This document shows, piece after piece, positions 1 through 49,955 of a stretch of DNA of 49,955 nucleotides. Source of the stretch: a virus; IMG/VR virus record IMGVR_UViG_3300045988_130579. One strand, written 5' to 3'. The first letter of the stretch is position 1, and each line of letters opens with the position of its first letter. Both the position numbers and the translations under genes were made by a program. Under the pieces are notes generated by a model that was not told the origin of the DNA, ran no database searches, and saw nothing but the letters and a program-made list of their open reading frames with translations.

Positions 1-76
1 GCTAATCACCTCCGCAGGGGTATACTTCCCTTTATGCTTGTATATAGTTAGTATGTGCGGCCGTTTTAACTAAAAA
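1..76. repeat. Copy A (3' portion) of a ~115-bp structured repeat. It matches 48641-48716 with one mismatch, and nt 1-45 match 49911-49955.
   Basis: Direct comparison of the three loci. The element has a GGCCGC...GCGGCC outer stem enclosing a 9-bp inner hairpin. Seen on the minus strand, a U-run, an RBS and a start codon follow. Confidence 0.9.
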
Positions 77-837
77 CAAACTAATTGTTCAAATTTCTGC
101 GGCTTGAGCATTTCGGTTTTAGCTTTATTGTAAAACTCCTTAGATAACTCAAATCCATAACTGTTTCTACCTAATTCCATAGCCGCTCTTAATGTTGTCC
201 CACTCCCTGCTAATGGATCTATAACCACGTCACCTGGGTCTGTAAAGATTGTTATTAACTGCTTCAACAAATTAACTGGCTTTTGTGTCGGATGTATTTT
301 AGGATATGTTTTTGTATCCTTTACCCAGTTAAACCAATTAAAAATCATTTTTCCATTATTATTAAATTTCGGTAGTTTTTCCCTGTATAACACCAAAGCG
401 TATTCAGTAGCACCAACAACACGCATATTTGCTTTTAATACCTGTGCTGAAAAGTTTTTGATGAAAATTAAAGGAATGTGTTTTTTAAACCCATGTTTTT
501 CTGCATACTGAATTACCATCGGCATTTGTTCAAATGAGCAAAAAACTATCATGCACGGAGCTTTCCCTTTTTCTTTAGGCTCTTTTTTTAATAAGCGATT
601 ACAAAAATGAAAGTATTCTGCAATGTTAAAATTATGATCTGTATTGAAAAAAGCTTTACCTGCAAATTTGCTTATACCTTTTTTATTATCGCGATCTACA
701 TACCACATTGGATTAGATCCGTAAGCATTTGCTCCAAGGTTGTACGGTATATCCGCAATTACTAACTGTGCCTTGGGAATCCCATACCGTTTAAAATTTT
801 GAAAATTATCACAATAAAATTCTGTCTTTATTTTCAT
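70..837 (-). CDS. DNA methyltransferase of the N6-adenine/N4-cytosine family (beta class)
   Basis: 255-aa ORF. It has HPTQKP...VIDPLAGSGTT near the C-terminus and ADIPYN near the N-terminus. An AGGAGG RBS precedes the ATG. Confidence 0.85.
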   Translation of the reverse strand: MKIKTEFYCDNFQNFKRYGIPKAQLVIADIPYNLGANAYGSNPMWYVDRDNKKGISKFAGKAFFNTDHNFNIAEYFHFCNRLLKKEPKEKGKAPCMIVFCSFEQMPMVIQYAEKHGFKKHIPLIFIKNFSAQVLKANMRVVGATEYALVLYREKLPKFNNNGKMIFNWFNWVKDTKTYPKIHPTQKPVNLLKQLITIFTDPGDVVIDPLAGSGTTLRAAMELGRNSYGFELSKEFYNKAKTEMLKPQKFEQLVCF

Positions 838-864
838 TGCTTGCCTCCTAAAGTTGACTGTATA

Positions 865-1488
865 TCAAAACGGTTCTGACTTATTAGTGTTCAGCTTGTC
901 AAAATGTTCTTCGCCTAAAATCTGTAGTTCTGCCATATCTGCAGCAAGGTTATATATTTTTGCATGCTTATTATTTCCATGTGTATCGGTAACCTTAGCT
1001 CTAAATTCGGCAATAGTCCCTAAGAAACAACCACAAGACACTGTTATACCTTTGTCTTTATTTTTGAAAAATGTCGTAAAACTAAATCTACTACCAATGC
1101 GACCGATCAATAAATAGTCAGCGTCGCCGCACACCCAAGCGTCGCCGCACACCCTAGCGTTGCCGTACACCTCAGCGTTGCCGTACACCTCAGCGTTGCC
1201 GTACACCTCAGCGTTGCCGCACACCCTAGCGTTGCCGCACACCCTAGCGTTGCCGTACACCCAAGCGTCGCCGTACACCTCAGCGTCGCCGTACACCTCA
1301 GCGTTGCCGTACACCCAAGCGTTGCCGTACACCCAAGCGTTGCCATCTTGCGCTAAGTTATCTTCTTTTTCCACATATCCACCAAGTTCACCAGCTTCAA
1401 CACTTCCAAAGCTAATTAAAGCCTTAATCCTAAATAATTTCTTGCCCCATTTTTCTATAAACTCTGCTGTCAACTCATACTTTTTCAT
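865..1488 (-). CDS. hexapeptide-repeat protein (GNAxVY x12, left-handed beta-helix-like) with unique N- and C-terminal domains
   Basis: 207-aa ORF with an AAGGAG RBS. The middle of the protein is encoded by perfect 18-bp tandem repeats. Confidence 0.75.
   Translation of the reverse strand: MKKYELTAEFIEKWGKKLFRIKALISFGSVEAGELGGYVEKEDNLAQDGNAWVYGNAWVYGNAEVYGDAEVYGDAWVYGNARVCGNARVCGNAEVYGNAEVYGNAEVYGNARVCGDAWVCGDADYLLIGRIGSRFSFTTFFKNKDKGITVSCGCFLGTIAEFRAKVTDTHGNNKHAKIYNLAADMAELQILGEEHFDKLNTNKSEPF
1123..1338. repeat. 12 tandem copies of an 18-bp unit (gttgccgtacacctcagc and variants), followed by a partial 13th copy
   Basis: Read directly from the sequence. The units differ at 2-4 positions only. 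Confidence 0.95.
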
Positions 1489-1703
1489 AGTTACCGCTCC
1501 TTTAAACTTTAGCTAAATCATCTTGACGACATGCTGACCGTTTTGGTACTACATCAGGCACTAACGGATGATATTTATAACACCGTTCACGATCAGCTAC
1601 CACATAAGTAAATCCGCTTTCTTTATCTACTCTCAAAAACGGTTGATGTCCGCTGTATGGACAATCAACAGTGTTAATACATTCAGCGCATTTTCGTTCA
1701 ACG

Positions 1704-1886
1704 TCATTGACGCAGGACCGTTAAAGTGCCGTTTATAGTATCCTCATGGATAACATGCGCCCCATAGTAATCTTCTAAGATATAGCCATCATTAAGAATC
1801 AACCAGTAGCCCCTCGAATCTTTATAGAATTCGTCCACGGCATTTTTATATTTTTTAGGGATGTAGTCTAATAATTTTTTCTTCAT
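1704..1886 (-). CDS. hypothetical small protein (start at the internal ATG with a GAAGGTG RBS)
   Basis: ORF-track entry 1704..1940. The upstream extension overlaps the next gene, and the internal ATG has a good RBS. Confidence 0.5.
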   Translation of the reverse strand: MKKKLLDYIPKKYKNAVDEFYKDSRGYWLILNDGYILEDYYGAHVIHEDTINGTLTVLRQ

Positions 1887-5860: not shown

Positions 5861-6091
5861 TTACTTTTTAAAGGTTTCTGTTTCCAGTAGATAGGCGATA
5901 CCGTAAATCACTACAGCCGCAGCTGTTATAAAAAATATGTCTATCATGTCTCCATTATACAAAAAACAGCCCATTTTGACATTTGAAGTTTTCGAGATTT
6001 CAAAATAGGCCATTTTTACCATTTCATTTACATAGATAATTTTGAGGTATTTATGCGCAATTTCCTGGACTTTTACTTGCAAATTATGCAC
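5861..6091 (-). CDS. small membrane protein; the start is uncertain and part of the 5' region lies within the bipartite repeat
   Basis: ORF track. It has a hydrophobic C-terminal half. Confidence 0.3.
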   Translation of the reverse strand: MHNLQVKVQEIAHKYLKIIYVNEMVKMAYFEISKTSNVKMGCFLYNGDMIDIFFITAAAVVIYGIAYLLETETFKK

Positions 6092-6105
6092 ACAGTTTAA
6101 ACTGG
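6036..6105. repeat. Bipartite ~70-bp repeat R1. It has two conserved boxes, GTTTAAACTGTGTGCATAATTTGC and AAATACCTCAAAATTAT, on the minus strand. The second copy is at 18551-18620.
   Basis: Direct comparison of the two loci. Both copies are intergenic and lie in late-gene regions. Confidence 0.8.
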
Positions 6106-6813
6106 ACCACCAGAGGTTCCGGACCCTGTATCTACGCCGGTGTGTCGGTGCGTACCGAATTCGATACCAGCGATAGAAGCACCCGTTGTTACGTCAAGAC
6201 GCTGCTGTGCCTTGATATTGCCCTGTACGGTCAAATTACCCGTAATGGTAGTATTACTATTTATCAAGGTGTTAGCCGTGTTCACAGTGACTTGTGACGG
6301 TCCTGTGATATTGATATTGCCGTCCGGCAAGACTTGGATGTAGCAGCTTGGCGTTTTGTTCAGGAAGCCGCCGACGTAAAAGCCATCAGAGATATCGAAC
6401 ATCCGGAATGTACCCGGCTGCACCGGCTCGGTGATACCTACATCGACATTCGACACATCCTGCTTGGCGAATACTGCAAGGCCGATATCTCCAACAACCG
6501 GGTCGCAAATCACTGCCGCCGCGCCGCCCTGAATGCGCAGATACGGCAGGCTGTACATCTGCGCTGGCTGTATGACGTTGTTTTCCGCGTCCATAGAACA
6601 AGTTAAGGGCAGGACGTCAACGCGCCCTGTGGGGGCAATTCCGCCCGCCTCAACGGCCTTTACGATAACCGGGAGTGCCGTGTAAAGGTTGCCGCCCATA
6701 AAAGACCGGATAAAGTAGTCCAGCTGGTTATATTCCGAATTCCCGGAATACGGCGTCCGGGTCGATTGTACAGCGGTCGGGTTACGCTGCTGCTTAACTG
6801 GCGTAGTTGGCAT
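6097..6813 (-). CDS. baseplate spike / central needle protein (gpV / Mu gp45-like)
   Basis: 238 aa. The C-terminus has beta-helix-like VTVNTANTLINSNTTITGNLTVQGNI followed by an HRH metal-binding-like motif. The gene sits after the baseplate hub genes. Confidence 0.65.
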   Translation of the reverse strand: MPTTPVKQQRNPTAVQSTRTPYSGNSEYNQLDYFIRSFMGGNLYTALPVIVKAVEAGGIAPTGRVDVLPLTCSMDAENNVIQPAQMYSLPYLRIQGGAAAVICDPVVGDIGLAVFAKQDVSNVDVGITEPVQPGTFRMFDISDGFYVGGFLNKTPSCYIQVLPDGNINITGPSQVTVNTANTLINSNTTITGNLTVQGNIKAQQRLDVTTGASIAGIEFGTHRHTGVDTGSGTSGGPV

Positions 6814-16966: not shown

Positions 16967-18529
16967 TTATCGAACGCTGATTTTATTCAGGCCTTGCAGA
17001 TAGTCCGGTACGGAGACTGCGGAATCCATAGCAACGCGGCCAGCGCCCCATTTTTCAGTTTGTTTGCTTCTGCGCAGTGCGTCAACCATGCCTTTATAGG
17101 CGGTAGGCGAATACTCGGAAACATTGAAGCCTTCTGCTTTGAGTGCAGCAGCATAGATATCATCTGCGCTATCATAAGCCAGCGGGTCGACTTTGCGGCC
17201 TAAGAATGCTTGACAGGTTTCAGCAGCAGCATTGCGTTCGCGGAAACTTGCTTCAATTTTTTTACGTTCTGCCGCCAAAATGCTAGGCAGTGCGTCTTCG
17301 GCCAAGTATTTTTCTTCGCCCTCGCGTTCGTGGTCGCGGTCGATACGTTTCGGGTCAGCTTTTTCGCGTTTCTCGCCGTATTTAACGCCCATTTCAAACG
17401 CTGCTTTGAAAGCAGGGTCTTTCATTTTTTCAGAAAGTTCGTCGTCTTCTCCTAAGGCTTTTTTCATGCCTTCGCTTTCATGTTCTTTATCCAGCTTTTC
17501 GCGTTCGCCGGGTTTCTTTTCCAGTTCTTCACCATATTTGACGCCTTCTGCAAAGGTCATTTTGCCTTCATCGTCTTTGGCGGCTGGTTTGGTTACAGCT
17601 TCGGCGGCTTCGTCCTCTGCTTTGGTGCCTTTCAAGCTAAGCAGGAAAGCACGGATTTTGTCTTTAGCGGCAGCTTCCAAGCCGGGGAAAAGCTTGTCAG
17701 TGATTTCGTCAACGGTTGCGTTTTCGTCGATATCAACACCAACATCGCGGGGAGAATATCCGCCCTCTACTTGCGCTTCGACCACTTGAATTGCTTTGAG
17801 TAAGTTGCCCAATTCGGTCTCACTCTTTTCAATTCCTAAATCAGCGTCAGCTGCAAGAACAGAGTGCAAAGCTTTTGCGCGGCGTTGTTTAAAGCGCTGC
17901 ACTGGCTCGGTAATTCTAAATTTTGCCATTTCTTTTAACTCTCCTTTCGGGGTATTGTTTATAGCTAGCCCAGCGGGCATACTATCGGCAACAGCCACGT
18001 CGGAACCAGCTCGGCCACGTGGCACAAGGGCAACGTGGTTACCCTTGATATCTCTCATTATAAAGTCATACGCTACGCCGTCAACCTCGCCCGGTGTGAA
18101 GTCAGGCGTATAACGGTAGCTACACGAAAGCTCTTTAAACTCTCCACGCTCGATTTTTCCAATCGCGTCAGCGTCCTGCACTGATATGGTATTGCGCAGA
18201 TACGGCGCGTCAAACGTGGTATCGGTCCCGGTAGCTCCTACACGGTGCTCTTTCTGCGGCTCGTCTGCGCTGTCGAAGTGGTGTTCAAGCAGCAGCGGCA
18301 GGCCGTTGAAAGTCTCGGCCGCTTTGGCTAGCTCGTCCGGGTCACGGTATCCGTAGTATATCCCCGTGGGGTTAAGTCCCAGTTCGGCGGCTCCGGGTAT
18401 CTCCCGGCCATAATAAGGATTGATACAGGCTTTGGATATCGGGCAGGCTGATACGTGCAGATATCCGTTATCATCTATCCTTCGGGCTGACGGGGCAGCG
18501 TCGAAGGTCAAATTGTTATCTTTTTCCAC
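16967..18529 (-). CDS. prohead protease / scaffold fusion protein (520 aa)
   Basis: A globular N-terminal domain is followed by a Glu/Lys-rich repetitive C-terminal half containing a duplicated AFKAAFEMGVKYGEKREK segment. GTG start with an AAGAGGTG RBS. Confidence 0.6.
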   Translation of the reverse strand: MEKDNNLTFDAAPSARRIDDNGYLHVSACPISKACINPYYGREIPGAAELGLNPTGIYYGYRDPDELAKAAETFNGLPLLLEHHFDSADEPQKEHRVGATGTDTTFDAPYLRNTISVQDADAIGKIERGEFKELSCSYRYTPDFTPGEVDGVAYDFIMRDIKGNHVALVPRGRAGSDVAVADSMPAGLAINNTPKGELKEMAKFRITEPVQRFKQRRAKALHSVLAADADLGIEKSETELGNLLKAIQVVEAQVEGGYSPRDVGVDIDENATVDEITDKLFPGLEAAAKDKIRAFLLSLKGTKAEDEAAEAVTKPAAKDDEGKMTFAEGVKYGEELEKKPGEREKLDKEHESEGMKKALGEDDELSEKMKDPAFKAAFEMGVKYGEKREKADPKRIDRDHEREGEEKYLAEDALPSILAAERKKIEASFRERNAAAETCQAFLGRKVDPLAYDSADDIYAAALKAEGFNVSEYSPTAYKGMVDALRRSKQTEKWGAGRVAMDSAVSVPDYLQGLNKISVR

Positions 18530-18550
18530 TTTATCACCTCTTAACTTGCA

Positions 18551-18620
18551 TGAATAATTTTGAGGTATTTGTACGGCTTTTCACGGCATTTTATCCGCAA
18601 ATTATGCACACAGTTTAAAC
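18551..18620. repeat. Bipartite ~70-bp repeat R2 (see 6036-6105). It lies in the 227-bp gap between the F-like and scaffold genes.
   Basis: The two conserved boxes (24 and 17 nt) are identical in both copies. Confidence 0.8.
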
Positions 18621-22460: not shown

Positions 22461-23262
22461 CTTCTCCCGTCACTCCCATTTGCTCTGCCAGTTCCGCAGC
22501 TCTGCGCTCCATTTCTTCCTCGCTCATGGTCGGCTGAATAGGTACACTCTCCGCCGCCGGAAGCGCCCCCGGAATATCAACGACTATCTGCGGCGTGATA
22601 TTGACGTTCACAGCTTTTTCATTAAACAGCTTATGATATCTGGCCATTCCTTCCGTGCCTGCTCTGTGCAGGCTAAGGCGCTGCACGGTCTTACCTATTA
22701 AAACGTATTCTTTATCTGGCCCTTGACCTCTGGCGGCATAGTTTAGTGTCTCGATAGTCTCGACAAGCTCGCCGCGCATTTGTCTAGTCAGATTTAACAG
22801 GGTCTCGTTTGCGTCGGCGATTTCTTCCGTTTCGATTTTTTCGCGAAGCTCATTAAGATACGTCTGTACCCACGGGCGCCGCAGTATCATATACGCCCGT
22901 TTTGCCGCGTATGTGTCGCCATAGCCTGCCGCCAGCGCGCTTTTTTTCGCATTGAAGGTCTTCATGTACTCACGGCAGAATTTCTTTTCTTGGTCAGACG
23001 CTACGCGCACGTACCCCGGTCTGATTTTGGTTACCGTCGCTATATCCTCTTTAGGCGAGCCGCCTTTTTTTGTATCCTCTTGAGAGACACGAACGCGCCC
23101 CCTATGCTGTTTTTCTATCTTTTCTTGCTGCTCCTCATATTTTTCCCAGAAGTTGTTTTCTTCTTCTGGAGTCGAAGCGTCAAGGTTTACTTTTTCCAGC
23201 TCGGCCGCTATTGCTTCCGGCGTTATCTGCTGCGTTTCCTTTTTCTTTCTCAACATCTTCAC
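22417..23262 (-). CDS. terminase small subunit
   Basis: 281 aa with an AAGYG...AAKRAYMILRRPWVQTYLNE segment typical of Terminase_2-type small subunits. It is the first gene of the late operon. Confidence 0.65.
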   Translation of the reverse strand: MKMLRKKKETQQITPEAIAAELEKVNLDASTPEEENNFWEKYEEQQEKIEKQHRGRVRVSQEDTKKGGSPKEDIATVTKIRPGYVRVASDQEKKFCREYMKTFNAKKSALAAGYGDTYAAKRAYMILRRPWVQTYLNELREKIETEEIADANETLLNLTRQMRGELVETIETLNYAARGQGPDKEYVLIGKTVQRLSLHRAGTEGMARYHKLFNEKAVNVNITPQIVVDIPGALPAAESVPIQPTMSEEEMERRAAELAEQMGVTGEDELPEPEPDTGDKA

Positions 23263-23272
23263 CCCACTTTAT

Positions 23273-23288
23273 TGTTTCACGTGAAACA
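23273..23288. promoter_or_regulatory. 16-bp perfect palindrome TGTTTCACGTGAAACA (copy 1). It lies between a TGnTATAAT box and the terS RBS.
   Basis: Exact inverted repeat, found three times in the window. Confidence 0.7.
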
Positions 23289-23341
23289 TCTGTCTATTTG
23301 TTCCATTATAACACAAGAGTAGATATTATGAATATTCTAAC

Positions 23342-27927: not shown

Positions 27928-27951
27928 AACTCACACCCTTTCTATGCTTTT

Positions 27952-27980
27952 ATTATACACCCCCCTCTGTATATTGTCAA
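27952..27980 (-). promoter_or_regulatory. consensus sigma70 promoter P2 (TTGACA-17-TATAAT)
   Basis: Matches P1 exactly over 36 nt. Confidence 0.8.
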
Positions 27981-28001
27981 CAGTTTTATTTCGACTTTGC
28001 A

Positions 28002-28030
28002 TAAAAAAAGCCCCGGACTTCCGGGGCTTT
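28002..28030 (-). terminator. intrinsic terminator (GCCCCGGA stem followed by T7 on the minus strand)
   Basis: aaaaaaagccccggacttccggggcttt. Confidence 0.8.
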
Positions 28031-32629: not shown

Positions 32630-32777
32630 TCAATCCACCTTACTAATAAATATACAAGCCATATTCCATACAGGATAAATATAGCAGCCGCTATATCACA
32701 GCTTAATATTTTTCGTGCCTTCTGTATTATTATTCTTTTATTCGGGCTCGTCTATTGTTCCCCCTTTCTTTGCCTAT

Positions 32778-32806
32778 ATTATATACCCCCCTGCGTACAT
32801 TGTCAA
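32778..32806 (-). promoter_or_regulatory. consensus sigma70 promoter P3 (TTGACA-17-TATAAT)
   Basis: The -35 overlaps the stop codon of the XRE-type regulator gene. Confidence 0.75.
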
Positions 32807-33177
32807 CACTTTTGTTTTAAATTTTTCTCCCTGTCGATATATTCACTATAGCCCGGCTCGTCTTCCAGCCCCTCGAAAAACTCTGAAACAGTCATTCCCA
32901 AGCCGTTAGCAACTTTAGCGATATTTTTCATTGATAAAGTTTCCGTTCTGCCTACTTCAAACTTGGACAGTGTGCCATATCTTACACCCGAACGTCGTGC
33001 AAGTTCAGCAGGCCAAATACCTTTCTTGCTGTATTCGCTGTAAATCTTCTTAATTATAAACCGATTAAGCGGTGTAGCTGCTTCCAGCTTCTTTAGTAGT
33101 AACTTTCTGCCTGCTGTCCACTTGGGCAGGACTTTGAAAGTATCTTCATATTTTCTCTCTTGATTCATCTTTTGCAC
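32803..33177 (-). CDS. XRE-family HTH transcriptional regulator (CI/Cro-like)
   Basis: IWPAELARRSGVRYGTLSKFEVGRTETLSMKNIAKVANGLGMTVSEF is a classic HTH_3 segment. The gene lies at a divergent promoter region. Confidence 0.8.
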   Translation of the reverse strand: MQKMNQERKYEDTFKVLPKWTAGRKLLLKKLEAATPLNRFIIKKIYSEYSKKGIWPAELARRSGVRYGTLSKFEVGRTETLSMKNIAKVANGLGMTVSEFFEGLEDEPGYSEYIDREKNLKQKC

Positions 33178-38886: not shown

Positions 38887-38915
38887 GCAATCACTCCTTT
38901 CTATTCTATGCCTAT

Positions 38916-38944
38916 ATTATATACCCCCCTGTGCGCGATGTCAA
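38916..38944 (-). promoter_or_regulatory. consensus sigma70 promoter P4 (TTGACA-17-TATAAT)
   Basis: Near-identical to P3. Confidence 0.8.
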
Positions 38945-38966
38945 CACTTTTATTTCAAGCAGACGC

Positions 38967-38995
38967 AAAAAAGGCCCCGAAATTCGGGGCCTTTT
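38967..38995. terminator. intrinsic terminator (GGCCCCGAA/TTCGGGGCC with flanking A- and T-runs)
   Basis: Read directly from the sequence. It ends the fibre operon. Confidence 0.85.
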
Positions 38996-43105: not shown

Positions 43106-43188
43106 CGTCAGCGAACCGATGAATTCGAGCAGGGTTTGCCACGTCGCGCCGTCCGTGCCCCTTTTTAAAATCTAGTGACGCAATCTAA

Positions 43189-43204
43189 TGTTTCACGTGA
43201 AACA
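43189..43204. promoter_or_regulatory. 16-bp palindrome TGTTTCACGTGAAACA (copy 3)
   Basis: Exact match. It lies in a 100-nt intergenic gap within the baseplate/fibre operon. Confidence 0.7.
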
Positions 43205-43205
43205 T

Positions 43206-47018: not shown

Positions 47019-47115
47019 GAGCATAAGCTCTCTTCTACCTACACCTTTTTCAATATATTTATTCCATCCTGACCCTAAAACAAAAAGACTGCCGAACGTT
47101 GGCAGTCTTTTTGTT
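47019..47115 (+). ncRNA. candidate small RNA 3 (~95 nt) ending at a bidirectional terminator (GACTGCC...GGCAGTC)
   Basis: Promoter-terminator unit. The only ATG-led frame has no SD and reads through the terminator. Confidence 0.3.
47084..47115. terminator. bidirectional intrinsic terminator
   Basis: aaaaagactgccgaacgttggcagtctttttgtttt. Confidence 0.8.
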
Positions 47116-47118
47116 TTG

Positions 47119-48222: not shown

Positions 48223-48345
48223 CTTTTTCGCCTTCCTTTTATCACTGGCCATTTCCAAAACGGAAACAACCAGTTTGAGTAATAACAGGAGCAGGGCTTC
48301 TGCCCTGCTATGCATTAATTCATTGGTTTCATTTACTGTTCTCCT

Positions 48346-48597
48346 TTATTTGAACAAGGTTTCTTCTAACATTTTTCTTTTCAGAACAGATGGACGTCGC
48401 GGTTTATATCGTCTATCCCCTATCGGATCTAACACATCTACTGCACAAAAGCAAAAATCTTTGCATTTATTGACACGCTTTAATTTTTCTATTGGCAATA
48501 TAGCATTTATGCTTGTGTTCGGAATTGCTTTAGCGTCACAATAATAAATATCGCCTGCATCCATACAGTTACTACAATAACGACAGTATTGCTTCAT
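48346..48597 (-). CDS. Cys-rich zinc-binding-like protein (83 aa)
   Basis: CRYCSNC...C...C motifs. The ATG follows a GGAGTGG RBS contributed by repeat copy B. Confidence 0.5.
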   Translation of the reverse strand: MKQYCRYCSNCMDAGDIYYCDAKAIPNTSINAILPIEKLKRVNKCKDFCFCAVDVLDPIGDRRYKPRRPSVLKRKMLEETLFK

Positions 48598-48600
48598 GCA

Positions 48601-48716
48601 TTACCACTCCAATCTTATATTTAAAAGGCCGCCCCCTACGGGCTAATCACCTCCGCAGGGGTATACTTCCCTTTATGCTTGTATATAGTTAGTATGCGCG
48701 GCCGTTTTAACTAAAA
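48601..48716. repeat. ~115-bp structured repeat, copy B (full length)
   Basis: Matches 49871-49955 plus 1-76. Confidence 0.9.
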
Positions 48717-49415
48717 TAAAATCTGTTGCGCATCTTCCAGCGCAAATCGCCGTTCTAGTTGCTCGACCGAATAATCAGGCTTAAATTTGTATTCTACCCG
48801 GCTGTCCATATCAAGCAACTCCTGCCACAGTTCCGGGTAATGCTTTCTTAGCGTCCGCAGTTCGCTCAACCTCTGCAGAGGGCAGCACCAGCAGGATACA
48901 CGTCTGAAATGCTCATATAAGCCACCCCAGTCAAAGCCCCTATCATAACAGTATTGCAATGCCTGTTTCTCGGTTATACCCCAATCAAACAGCGGGTGCA
49001 CCGTATTTTTAGGTATGTTCTTGTGTCGCTTAGGTTCGTCGGCCGCTATGCCGATGTAGGATATATAGTTATTAACTCCGATCTCCCGCAAGTATTTATT
49101 TGTTGGCTCCTGCTTTAGCAGCCTTGTACACCAACGCACCCACATCCTGGCCCAGCCGTAGCCTTTGCGGTGTATGTTTTTACCTTTTACTTTGACGTGT
49201 TCAGCGAAATAATAATCAAAAGACTTTTCTGCTCGCAAAACTGTAATAGCTCTGCCAATATGCCGCTCGACTTTTGAAATATGATCATACATCTGCGGGA
49301 ACTCCTTGCCAGTGTCGCAATATATGATTTCATCTACCGGCATATCCCGCTCAAGCATCATAAGCAGCATAGCTGTGCTGTCTTTGCCACCCGAAAATTG
49401 GACTATATGCTTCAT
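48711..49415 (-). CDS. phosphoadenosine phosphosulfate (PAPS) reductase-family PP-loop protein
   Basis: N-terminal SGGKDS PP-loop. Cys cluster SCWCCP near the C-terminus. Confidence 0.75.
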   Translation of the reverse strand: MKHIVQFSGGKDSTAMLLMMLERDMPVDEIIYCDTGKEFPQMYDHISKVERHIGRAITVLRAEKSFDYYFAEHVKVKGKNIHRKGYGWARMWVRWCTRLLKQEPTNKYLREIGVNNYISYIGIAADEPKRHKNIPKNTVHPLFDWGITEKQALQYCYDRGFDWGGLYEHFRRVSCWCCPLQRLSELRTLRKHYPELWQELLDMDSRVEYKFKPDYSVEQLERRFALEDAQQILF

Positions 49416-49424
49416 AACGTCACC

Positions 49425-49883
49425 TCAAAATAGTCTTACCGGTTCATTCTGCGCCGCTTGCCAAGGCCTATAATCCGACCATGAGCACGCCCTGTGAATC
49501 CGTCCGTTGACCCACCTTGCAAAATGTTTCAGCCTGCTATCACCTGCTTGATTGTAAATCATCACATACGGTCTTATCCTAAGCTCATCTAAAACCCTAA
49601 ACCGATACATATCTTCGGCAAACGTAGTGTTATAACCAACCAGCATAAAACACATATGCCGGTACGGTTTAACGTATTTGCTCAGCAGTGCTATTCCACC
49701 AAGCACCTGCTGTTCAAAGCCCATTAAGTCCCAAGCGTAGTGAATACTACGCAGATGTTTGAGTTCCGTCAAAGCCTGCAGAAGTACTGACTTTAATACC
49801 GGTATATATTGATCCTCCGGCTCATCTTTAATCATTGCCATCATGGCTTTTATATCCAAGGATTTCACATTTAACCACTCCAA
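49425..49883 (-). CDS. hypothetical protein (152 aa), co-transcribed with the PAPS reductase-like gene
   Basis: ORF track. GGAGTGG RBS from repeat copy C. Confidence 0.5.
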   Translation of the reverse strand: MEWLNVKSLDIKAMMAMIKDEPEDQYIPVLKSVLLQALTELKHLRSIHYAWDLMGFEQQVLGGIALLSKYVKPYRHMCFMLVGYNTTFAEDMYRFRVLDELRIRPYVMIYNQAGDSRLKHFARWVNGRIHRACSWSDYRPWQAAQNEPVRLF

Positions 49884-49955
49884 ACTTATATTTAAAAGGC
49901 CCCCCTACGGGCTAATCACCTCCGCAGGGGTATACTTCCCTTTATGCTTGTATAT
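49871..49955. repeat. ~115-bp structured repeat, copy C, truncated by the window end. The last 45 nt match window positions 1-45.
   Basis: Direct comparison of the loci. Confidence 0.9.

Follow-up and report, generated by a model that had tools for sequence, protein, structure and literature searches.

The window analysed here, the whole of a 49,955-nt stretch of viral DNA (IMG/VR record IMGVR_UViG_3300045988_130579), ends as it begins: positions 1–45 equal positions 49911–49955 exactly, and this is the sole terminal overlap in the 20–199 nt range. Because its ends are identical over 45 nt, the window is a 49,910-bp circle that carries two copies, and not three, of an intercistronic repeat of 95–117 nt on the minus (coding) strand, referred to here as element E. 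A first-pass annotation of the sequence had counted three copies, or two in the case of a circular genome; the repeat is real, and it is the second count that holds. The end-to-start match is a true circular junction, as the stretch from the methyltransferase gene through E to the next gene lies inside three contigs (L012, L030, and L051; 99.1% identity over 697 nt), and the complete two-copy layout lies inside independent scaffolds of ~50 kb from other samples (L158, L160, and L163). Copy B (48614–48711) is a full allele of 98 nt, F1, that is 100% identical to the allele commonest among relatives and scores 45 bits with our covariance model (E = 7e-9); it runs from the G of the stop codon of the preceding gene to TATAAG, and once the shared flanks are included the repeat unit around it extends over 48601–48716. 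The other copy, A/C, runs across the circular junction, with its 3′ part at 49885–49955 (element positions about 26–96) and its 5′ part at 1–70 (element positions 1–70), bases 1–45 of which duplicate 49911–49955 as the assembly overlap of the circle. Its sequence is uninterrupted inside L158, L162, and L163. Compared with copy B it has a 2–3-nt deletion in the 3′ arm of the outer stem (GGGGGCGGCC to GGGGGGCC), one G/A change, and one A/T change before the Shine–Dalgarno (SD) sequence. The two copies form a direct duplication 1.27 kb apart, and the covariance model found no further ones in the window.

Both copies lie on the same strand as all their neighbors in the order stop codon, E, SD, as the first-pass annotation had proposed. 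Upstream of copy A/C is a gene for an N6/N4 DNA methyltransferase (70–837, minus strand; PF01555 at 1.5e-31), and downstream of it is an open reading frame (49425–49868, minus strand) first described as encoding 152 aa; the longer reading starts from TTG at 49883, and gene callers give 147 aa from a GTG at 49868. Copy B follows a gene for a PAPS-reductase-like protein of 234 aa (48711–49415, minus strand; PF01507 at 4.5e-19, phrog_424 at 2e-55) and precedes a gene for a Cys-rich protein of 83 aa (48346–48597, minus strand), which also comes after E in five related loci (L007, L031, L035, L086, and L089). It had been suggested that each copy supplies the SD of the next gene; however, the SD lies outside the conserved element and varies with the downstream gene. 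E has a mid-operon position upstream of the block leading to the terminase genes, and TerS was confirmed 2.5–4 kb downstream.

Around 240 related phage and prophage stretches carry E, each in a single copy (the check for a second copy took in the first 95 IMG/VR loci, and all listed rows show a single match); in the metagenome stretches, 96 of 96 have one copy. The host is Phascolarctobacterium faecium, and E belongs to the early region of temperate phages of this species. In strain DSM 14760 E is located on NZ_QLTS01000009 (about 7290–7395 in L116). Two copies occur only within the lineage of the window phage, so that elsewhere genes are not bracketed by E and the proposal that it serves as cassette-like punctuation is not borne out. 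The main allele is 99.7% identical among its carriers compared with 84–88% for the flanking genes, and the alleles differ deeply from each other while each is almost clonal. What surrounds the element is shuffled: six upstream and nine downstream gene families, mostly DNA-modification genes, form 19 neighbor combinations among 86 loci, and the mosaicism on either side has its junctions at the edges of E. In the window, the annotated neighbors are methyltransferase, beta-solenoid, PAPS-reductase, small-protein, and baseplate genes. As E is nearly invariant and its neighbors are variable, we regard it as the point where phages swap their left and right gene sets. Searches with a covariance model of allele F4 recovered only known copies and none in the backbone loci or in distant PAPS-reductase loci, and blastn against GenBank phages gave no match.

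On the mRNA strand E is predicted to fold into a three-way junction of helices P1, P2, and P3. The two stems described in the first-pass annotation both exist, but the outer one is longer than was stated and a third helix is present. This outer stem, P1, closes the junction and consists of a GC clamp lengthened by A-tract/U-tract pairs, in which UUAAAA(C)GGCCGC pairs with GCGGCCUUUUAA over 12 bp with one bulge; in copy B predicted folds and covariation place its 5′ strand, comprising the A-tract and the GC clamp, at 48698–48710 and its 3′ strand, GCGGCC followed by the U-run UUUUAA, at 48621–48632. P3, a GC-rich hairpin (CCCCUGCGG-AGGUGAUUAGC-CCGUAGGGG; 48633–48661 in copy B) assigned from predicted folds and compensatory changes, directly adjoins P1 on the 3′ strand, and the continuous P3 and P1 3′ strand leads straight into UUUUAAAU. 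P2 (48662–48697 in copy B) is a dispensable side branch region that includes the invariant blocks CUAUAUACAAGCA and GGGAAGUAUA; alleles F3 and F4 have a longer P2, whereas the natural variants F1d24 and F2 have lost it. The P1 clamp reads GGCCGC/GCGGCC and, in allele F4, GGCUGC/GCAGCC, with UUUUAAAU directly after it. The halves of the alleles recombine, as the left half of F4 can be joined to a right half with GCAGCC or to one with GCGGCC. P3 exists in two allelic versions, HP-A and HP-B, the latter found in 29 IMG/VR loci and 22 metagenome stretches.

All alleles are predicted to share one architecture, with stabilities of −32 to −43 kcal/mol and z-scores of −2.7 to −3.9 for the full forms. 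The sense strand folds more stably than the antisense strand in 35 of 36 distinct sequences (mean −37.0 vs. −31.4 kcal/mol). Compensatory changes between alleles support the fold: clamp position 4 of P1 is C-G, U-A, or U.G, consistent with a change from C-G to U-A via U.G, and in HP-B the P3 stem has C-G replaced by U-A and G.U by G-C. In the alignment used for counting, which was itself fitted to the model, 94% of cells pair compared with 44–52% when partners are slid, and 13 pairs are changed on both sides compared with 0–4 in the slid controls, a covariation signal that rests mainly on the single deep split between the allele classes. A MAFFT alignment of all alleles misplaced the 5′ arm, and hand-parsed and model-based alignments were used instead. 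A search with Rfam 15, including its riboswitch, ribozyme, put, and EAR models, gave no match at the gathering threshold across the whole window, and the Rfam check proposed for the element matched no family over 48500–48800 even at E ≤ 10; ARAGORN found no tRNA or tmRNA. E is an RNA motif that Rfam lacks and that covariation supports.

The PAPS-reductase-like gene and the open reading frame upstream of it had been taken as a two-gene module bracketed by the repeat. Sequence comparisons show that the first gene of this module, the upstream reading frame, is a chimera: its first 40 codons (residues 1–45 of the 152-aa reading) are those of a gene that follows E in L012, here called gene 1, and they continue in frame into the last ~105 codons of a radical-SAM (rSAM) gene, the C-terminal third of the protein without the radical-SAM core. 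The window is identical to L012 over ~124 nt up to an abrupt break, and from the junction through the PAPS-reductase gene and E it is 99.74% identical to L167, in which the PAPS-reductase gene (99.7% nucleotide identity) stands after a full-length rSAM gene. At the junction lies a 12-nt microhomology, AAACATCTGCGT (49748–49759, minus strand), identified by comparing the window with L012 gene 1 and the L167 rSAM gene. The second copy of E is the scar of two phage genomes joined out of register: one parent had the order methyltransferase, E, gene 1 and the other the order rSAM, PAPS-reductase, E, next gene, and joining at the microhomology inside gene 1 and the rSAM gene produced the chimeric open reading frame together with the direct duplication of E. 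The first gene of the supposed module is thus a chimeric remnant. An assembly chimera was rejected as the source of the junction because the identical chimeric protein and the same layout are found in independent ENA and Logan assemblies; samples with the window phage include ERZ28564060 and ERZ28594307.

Both copies sit in a 3.3-kb island imported into a ~50-kb myophage backbone that is otherwise free of E. The right part of the island is 48327–49955, which continues across the circular junction as the left part, 1–1704, both on the minus strand; the latter holds a remnant of a cluster-12 protein (1502–1636), a beta-solenoid protein gene, the methyltransferase gene, and the 5′ part of copy A/C. 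Homology to the backbone contigs L168, L170, L172, and L177 (97–99.8%) resumes at 48326 and ends at about 1705, and these contigs contain neither the island nor E.

We consider E most likely to be an intrinsic terminator or attenuator, as judged from its modeled anatomy. Its GC clamp stands directly before UUUU with a complementary A-tract upstream, and a GC stem leading into a U-run, which the first-pass annotation had pointed out, is terminator-like. E would terminate or attenuate transcription independently of factors, or would at a minimum be an insulator that forms or protects RNA ends, and would separate the DNA-modification genes from the downstream resolvase and small-gene block. In phage lambda, the intrinsic terminator tR2 lies in the delayed-early operon at the start of the nin region. 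E resembles tR2-like terminators in its GC-rich stem abutting a U-run and in its location: replication and accessory genes precede it, and a resolvase gene (DUF1064 or RusA), small nin-like genes, and then the packaging genes come after it. E differs from them in that it is branched, has a short U-tract and an ultraconserved primary sequence, and comes with no identified antitermination system. The U-tract (UUUUAAAU) has four consecutive U residues compared with about 6–8 U-rich residues in a canonical intrinsic terminator, and within its stem lies a branch, or a 12-nt internal loop and a second hairpin, where a canonical terminator has a compact hairpin with a loop of 3–8 nt. A simple terminator scan did not call E. 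A strong terminator in the middle of an operon would need read-through or antitermination, and no antiterminator was identified. Moreover, a plain terminator leaves the invariant unpaired blocks (CUAUAUACAAGCA and GGGAAGUAUA) and the near-clonal identity of the alleles unexplained. The account as a whole, in which a terminator-like RNA element serves as an exchange hot spot and was duplicated through a microhomology join, strikes us as evenly poised between right and wrong.

Those unexplained features are what a cis-acting regulatory RNA would account for, in which a factor from the phage or the host binds E and termination at P1 is conditional. E could be a processive antitermination signal of the nut, put, or EAR type or a RAT-like terminator under protein control, and the invariant P2 loop and the junction would be the recognition surface. 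The unpaired blocks remain invariant in sequence even where their pairing partners are deleted, conservation of E is extreme relative to its neighbors, the mid-operon site lies upstream of the block toward the terminase genes, and deeply different but almost clonal alleles are as expected for specificity pairs. However, no protein partner covaries with the allele beyond linkage to the adjacent resolvase gene (DUF1064 or RusA), put, EAR, and the other Rfam models do not match, variants without P2 or without the whole 5′ half persist, and the myophage backbone in which E is also found is foreign and would have no cognate factor. We think such a regulatory role possible but improbable. Slightly further from what the data support is the fuller version of the idea, which we hold to be doubtful: that E represents a kind of cis-regulatory phage RNA not described before, which would control read-through into delayed-early or late-activating genes by terminating conditionally or by signaling processive antitermination. 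Its invariant loop and junction would be read by the host RNA polymerase, the ribosome, or a phage factor, HP-A and HP-B would be specificity types, and E, being indispensable and invariant, would have become the fixed anchor for the exchange of anti-restriction and DNA-modification cassettes. That a late activator is encoded downstream of E is a guess because the gene for 147–160 aa before TerS in relatives has no PHROG match. Should E prove to terminate conditionally or to signal antitermination, it would give access to the regulation of Negativicutes phages, which to our knowledge is essentially unstudied.

In another reading E stabilizes or processes mRNA, acting as an exonuclease block while an SD-like loop holds the 30S subunit as a STAB-SD-type 5′ stabilizer of the downstream cistron. 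In HP-A the top of P3, namely the last two G residues of the stem and the first seven bases of the loop, reads GGAGGUGAU, a 9-nt perfect complement of the generic bacterial 16S rRNA 3′ end, and inspection by eye shows no start codon (ATG, GTG, or TTG) behind it at a distance suited to initiation. In this the main allele is like the STAB-SD and 5′ stabilizer sequences reviewed for Bacillus mRNAs (PMC4113751, PMC3997798), as it has a very strong SD-like sequence that stands alone in an untranslated region; the structure is very stable, and the host is a member of the Bacillota, a group with known RNase J/Y and STAB-SD biology. On the other hand, the SD-like sequence is not conserved across the family, as the HP-B loop at the same position, AAUGGCCUUA, has none, and in HP-A it is partly within the stem, at the top of a hairpin and far from any mapped 5′ end. 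We regard a stabilizing role as unlikely.

The mosaic flanks with junctions at the element edges, the recombining allele halves, and the gene conversion between copies would also fit a DNA-level recombination device. E would then mark the edges of mobile cassettes, as T4 PeSLs and integron attC sites do, and the 1.27-kb module would be one such cassette. PeSLs, the promoter-early stem-loop regulatory cassettes of T4-type phages, behave in this way (Arbiol et al. 2010, PMC2839356; Comeau et al. 2014, PMC4122927), and E shares with them a conserved intergenic unit of ~100 bp with a stable, terminator-like stem-loop just upstream of the next SD, a location in a hyperplastic region where it offers a patch of homology for the exchange of unrelated accessory genes, and direct repeats that could in principle excise the genes between them. 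The arrangement predicted for such a deletion, methyltransferase, E, Cys-rich 83-aa gene, is indeed present in L035, and in L158 and L165 the two copies have undergone gene conversion with each other, in line with the earlier suggestion that the repeats could recombine. But PeSLs have a strong sigma-70 early promoter with an AT-rich upstream region, flank single ORFans in many copies per genome, and form a simple polyG/polyC stem, whereas E has no detectable promoter, is single in about 240 stretches and double here as a recombination scar, and is a covarying three-way junction in a different host and phage group. With attC sites E has in common imperfect inverted repeats of 60–140 nt after a gene, single-strand folding, and variation in gene content; however, attC sites are conserved in structure only, whereas copies of E are nearly identical and occur once per genome. 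No integron integrase (IntI) or other integrase-like gene was found among the annotated neighbors, and no cassette array was found. By eye the attC cores R″ (RYYYAAC) and R′ (GTTRRRY) are absent, as the element begins with TTAAAAC and ends with CTTTTAAAT, its 3′ end has no GTT, and GTTAAAA fails at the final Y of R′. Genomes normally have a single E, the second copy here is accounted for by a gene-truncating microhomology join rather than cassette insertion, and both the changes compatible with G.U pairing and the asymmetry between the strands speak for RNA. A dedicated recombination device appears very unlikely, the hot-spot status of E being more likely a consequence of conservation than a function. 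Direct repeats around genes are thus not by themselves proof of a dedicated cassette system. E provides a concrete, testable example outside the T4 group of a conserved regulatory sequence that serves as a point of accessory-gene exchange. The accessory genes here encode methyltransferases, resolvases, and a radical-SAM/PAPS-reductase pair, and the phages infect a common anaerobe of the human gut.

That E holds a host sigma-70 or phage-specific promoter for the downstream genes, with the hairpin as a 5′ leader, is most improbable in spite of the invariant block CTATATACAAGCA, the precedent of PeSLs joining a promoter with a stem-loop (PMC2839356), and a weak TTAAAA-17-TATATA in F1 and an extended −10-like TGC-TATATA in F3 (both by eye), because a promoter scan finds no sigma-70-like site on the coding strand of either window copy, the −10 candidate has no final T and is lost entirely in F1d24 and F2, the spacing between the conserved blocks is not fixed, and the promoters of the phage itself are perfect TTGACA-17-TATAAT sequences. 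Three further candidates were rejected. A plus-strand antisense sRNA from TTCACA-17-TATATT (49864–49892) would have its −35 in the variable downstream gene, its spacing fails in relatives (by eye), and the antisense strand folds worse in all but one of the 36 sequences. A C-terminal extension of the upstream gene through E is contradicted by upstream stop codons that abut the element, the sole open frame having a stop just upstream (by eye). Finally, complements of either P3 loop, as possible trans targets, do not occur consistently elsewhere in the window or in the HP-B loci.

The interpretation of the first-pass annotation is thus partly supported, and the lineage of the window phage preserves a stepwise record of how one microhomology join can give rise to a duplicated, cassette-like layout that afterwards decays. 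In the new backbone copies of E are often weakened or lost, with whole or partial deletions in L159, L161, L162, and L166, and the 3-nt arm deletion is calculated to cost about 6 kcal/mol. Such weakening and loss is what a polar terminator would select for, although it could simply reflect recombination at the repeats.

Repeat finding and alignment showed that E, a structured intercistronic repeat element, is present in two copies in the window, both on the minus strand: copy B (48614-48711) and copy A/C (49885-49955 continuing into 1-70). In an end-to-end comparison of the window, bases 1-45 equal the last 45 bases with no other terminal overlap, and the sequence is therefore a circle of 49,910 bp. 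The repeat reported by the first-pass annotation is thus borne out, with two copies on the circle, and the circular junction it had suspected is genuine: the methyltransferase-E-next gene junction is internal to contigs L012, L030, and L051 (99.1% identity over 697 nt), and the complete two-copy layout is internal to the independent ~50-kb scaffolds L158, L160, and L163, which come from other samples and assemblers. The contig break within E is probably due to E being a repeat. All genes neighboring E are coded on the minus strand, in the order N6/N4 methyltransferase (837..70), copy A/C, an ORF of 147 or 152 aa (49868/49883..49425), a PAPS-reductase-like gene (49415..48711), copy B, and a Cys-rich 83-aa gene (48597..48346). 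An array of 12-13 tandem 18-nt units (1084-1389) lies inside gene 865..1488 (minus strand) and encodes the NAEVYG-type hexapeptide repeats of a YdcK-type beta-solenoid protein of 207 aa; because homologs in relatives vary widely in length (about 150-315 aa), expansion and contraction of these repeats is suggested.

Exact-pattern scans identified E in 95, 90, 110, 110, and >120 IMG/VR stretches, depending on the anchor, and E is also found in 96 metagenome stretches. Every IMG/VR row among the matches listed has a single match to E, no second copy was found when one was looked for in the first 95 IMG/VR loci, and E is single-copy in 96 of 96 metagenome stretches. Among 185,579 species genomes covered by one scan, E turned up in just one, as part of a prophage of Phascolarctobacterium faecium DSM 14760, which identifies this species as the host of the E-bearing phages. 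These relatives are temperate phages with E in the early region, where it is preceded by early genes (the first of which are taken to be replication genes), genes for a beta-solenoid protein and for small Zn-finger proteins, and, as immediate neighbor, a C5 methyltransferase, N6/N4 methyltransferase, radical-SAM-like, or PAPS-reductase gene; the latter two form a natural adjacent pair. The genes on its 3' side start, in some loci, with an extra one (a further methyltransferase, the Cys-rich 83-aa gene, DUF3560, or others); next come either gene 1, which is about 75 aa long, together with DUF1064, or RusA, and then many small genes and YopX. A confirmed small terminase subunit lies 2.5-4 kb beyond these genes. 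The 86 loci with both neighbors present show 19 neighbor combinations from six upstream and nine downstream gene families, and E lies where DNA-modification genes have a hot spot in Negativicutes phages of the gut.

Several unrelated upstream genes share the final codons ..(N/I)LF-stop (AATTTATTTTAG or ATTTTATTTTAG) directly before E, and the DSM 14760 prophage (L116 7270-7300) has only the mini-ORF ATG AAT TTA TTT TAG at that place. In L167 (about 500-540 and 2224-2240), this short A/T-rich motif is interrupted by the radical-SAM/PAPS-reductase pair, so the left exchange point lies a few bases upstream of E.

Copies of the main allele F1 are 99.7% identical pairwise versus 84-88% for the genes on both sides; the loci were chosen by a 21-mer, which limits the bias to 21 of the 98 positions, and scans with other anchors added few further variants. 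In F1d24 (L031 and L046), 24 nt of helix P2 are missing; in F2 (L100, L101, L105, L106, and L115), the entire first 39 nt at the 5' end are missing. F3 has a different and longer P2. F4 was found at 29 IMG/VR loci and in 22 metagenome stretches; its P1 is altered, its P2 is lengthened, and its P3 hairpin differs.

Folding gave the same three-way junction for every full allele. In P1, UUAAAA(C)GGCCGC pairs with GCGGCCUUUUAA; P2 is a side branch with the invariant CUAUAUACAAGCA in its apical part; and P3 is a GC-rich hairpin with a 3' arm that runs uninterrupted into that of P1 and on into a U-run. The shorter P3 of F4 frees two G's that pair with two new C's and lengthen P1, so that P1 and P3 behave as a single stacked stem. 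Compensatory changes, counted on a hand-parsed alignment of 37 distinct sequences, include P1 position 4 (C-G, 25; U-A, 9; U.G, 3), P3 position 7 (C-G, 23; U-A, 12), and P3 position 6 (G.U, 24; G-C, 13), along with several single C-to-U changes facing G and five sporadic disruptions. When all alleles were aligned using a covariance model built from F4, 94.2% of cells were paired versus 44-52% with slid partners, and 13 pairs had changed on both sides versus 0-4 in slid controls; this alignment leans to the model, and a single deep split between alleles supplies most of the signal. The sense strand is stabler than the antisense strand in 35 of 36 sequences, and G.U pairs become A.C mismatches on the opposite strand, and the structure therefore belongs to the mRNA strand. 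The Infernal/Rfam check proposed in the first-pass annotation matched no family; E is a terminator-like RNA motif, structured and ultraconserved, that Rfam does not describe.

This conserved, covarying structure lies on the coding strand between a stop codon and the next Shine-Dalgarno (SD) sequence, with a GC clamp directly against the U-run and a complementary A-tract. In the early operon, E most likely serves as an intrinsic terminator, an attenuator, or an insulator of RNA ends. Lambda tR2 precedes the nin genes, and the position of E appears analogous. A plain terminator leaves the invariant unpaired blocks and near-clonal alleles unexplained, and we therefore retain as the main rival a factor-recognized conditional terminator or antitermination RNA. 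Loss or weakening of E in a foreign operon fits relief of polarity and could equally reflect repeat instability. The SD-like sequence GGAGGUGAU at the top of the P3 hairpin is striking but absent from allele HP-B, which rules out a STAB-SD-type role as the general function. An integron attC site is ruled out by the lack of an integrase among the annotated neighbors, by the lack of core sites, and by the RNA-type covariation.

Among known systems, E seems to act most like the stem-loop half of the T4 PeSL and, in the recombination of mosaic phages, like their "boundary sequences" (PMC2839356, PMC4122927). It falls outside PeSLs as defined, both on the promoter and on copy number. A promoter scan of the two E copies in the window found no sigma-70 promoter-like site, and the phage has perfect consensus promoters of its own elsewhere.

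The duplication in the window can be traced to the ORF after copy A/C, which is a chimera of gene 1 and the radical-SAM-like protein. Its first 45 residues (152-aa reading) match gene 1 of L012 at 44 of 45 positions, the start codon being the sole difference, and the remainder aligns with the C-terminal third of the radical-SAM-like protein. The window and L012 are identical over a stretch of about 124 nt that opens shortly before the start codon; past this stretch, they diverge abruptly. L167 carries a full-length radical-SAM gene (324 aa; phrog_9298, 5e-77) followed by an identical PAPS-reductase gene and E, and from the junction onward it is 99.74% identical to the window over 1,155 nt. Exactly at the junction (49748-49759), AAACATCTGCGT is common to both genes. 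A single out-of-register, microhomology-mediated join between methyltransferase-E-gene 1 and radical SAM-PAPS reductase-E-next gene accounts for all three features, namely gene truncation, in-frame fusion, and E as a direct duplication, and the reconstruction is unusually complete. The first-pass view of E as cassette-like punctuation is only partly right: a terminator-like element does separate stop codon and SD, but it is single-copy in relatives, and its duplication stems from this join.

Only an imported 3.3-kb island (1704..1 plus 49910..48327, minus strand) is common to the window and most E-bearing loci. Backbone homology ends at about 1705 and resumes at 48326. The collection lists the downstream 116-aa gene in 1,216 blocks; the 10 contigs examined, of 31-51 kb, have genes of 54 aa and 78-81 aa in front of it and no E. 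The island takes the place of a small backbone gene and begins with a 44-aa ORF (1502-1636, minus strand), which is what remains of the C-terminus of a 216-aa early-region protein of E-bearing temperate phages and is the left scar of the import. Independent assemblies of the window's lineage reveal that the island is decaying or recombining: both E copies are intact in L160; a 3-nt arm deletion affects copy A/C only in the window, L163, and L164, and both copies in L158 and L165, where the flank is converted too, a pattern pointing to gene conversion; copy B is deleted in L162 and cut off inside P3 in L159; and L161 and L166 have lost copy A/C and carry a triple fusion. This 137-aa ORF (L161 2578-2991, L166 465-878) consists of 13 aa from the N-terminus of the methyltransferase, an internal gene 1 segment, and the C-terminus of the radical-SAM protein, and was made by a further deletion that took out copy A/C.

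Other regulatory-looking sites were found in the window. A four-copy minus-strand repeat family (2665-2721, 27951-28007, 32777-32833, and 38915-38971) has in each copy a perfect TTGACA-17-TATAAT promoter, the spacer of which contains a G-run (AACTGTTGACAATATACAGAGGGGGGTGTATAATA). They are probably the early promoters of the phage, and transcription of the operon with the island and both E copies would start from the one at 2721. A direct repeat of 90 nt with 77% identity, a candidate for regulating late genes, lies directly upstream of the prohead protease gene (18531-18620; gene 18529..16967) and across the 3' end of baseplate-module gene 6097..6813 (6013-6102). The near-perfect palindrome ATGTTTCACGTGAAACA(T), which could be an operator or other regulatory site, occurs 3 nt upstream of the small terminase start at 23262 (23265-23289) and between genes of the tail or baseplate region (43181-43205). 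A perfect 20-bp hairpin with flanking A- and T-runs (47076-47118), kept in island-free backbone contigs, resembles a strong bidirectional terminator and probably ends the accessory operon ahead of the baseplate genes.
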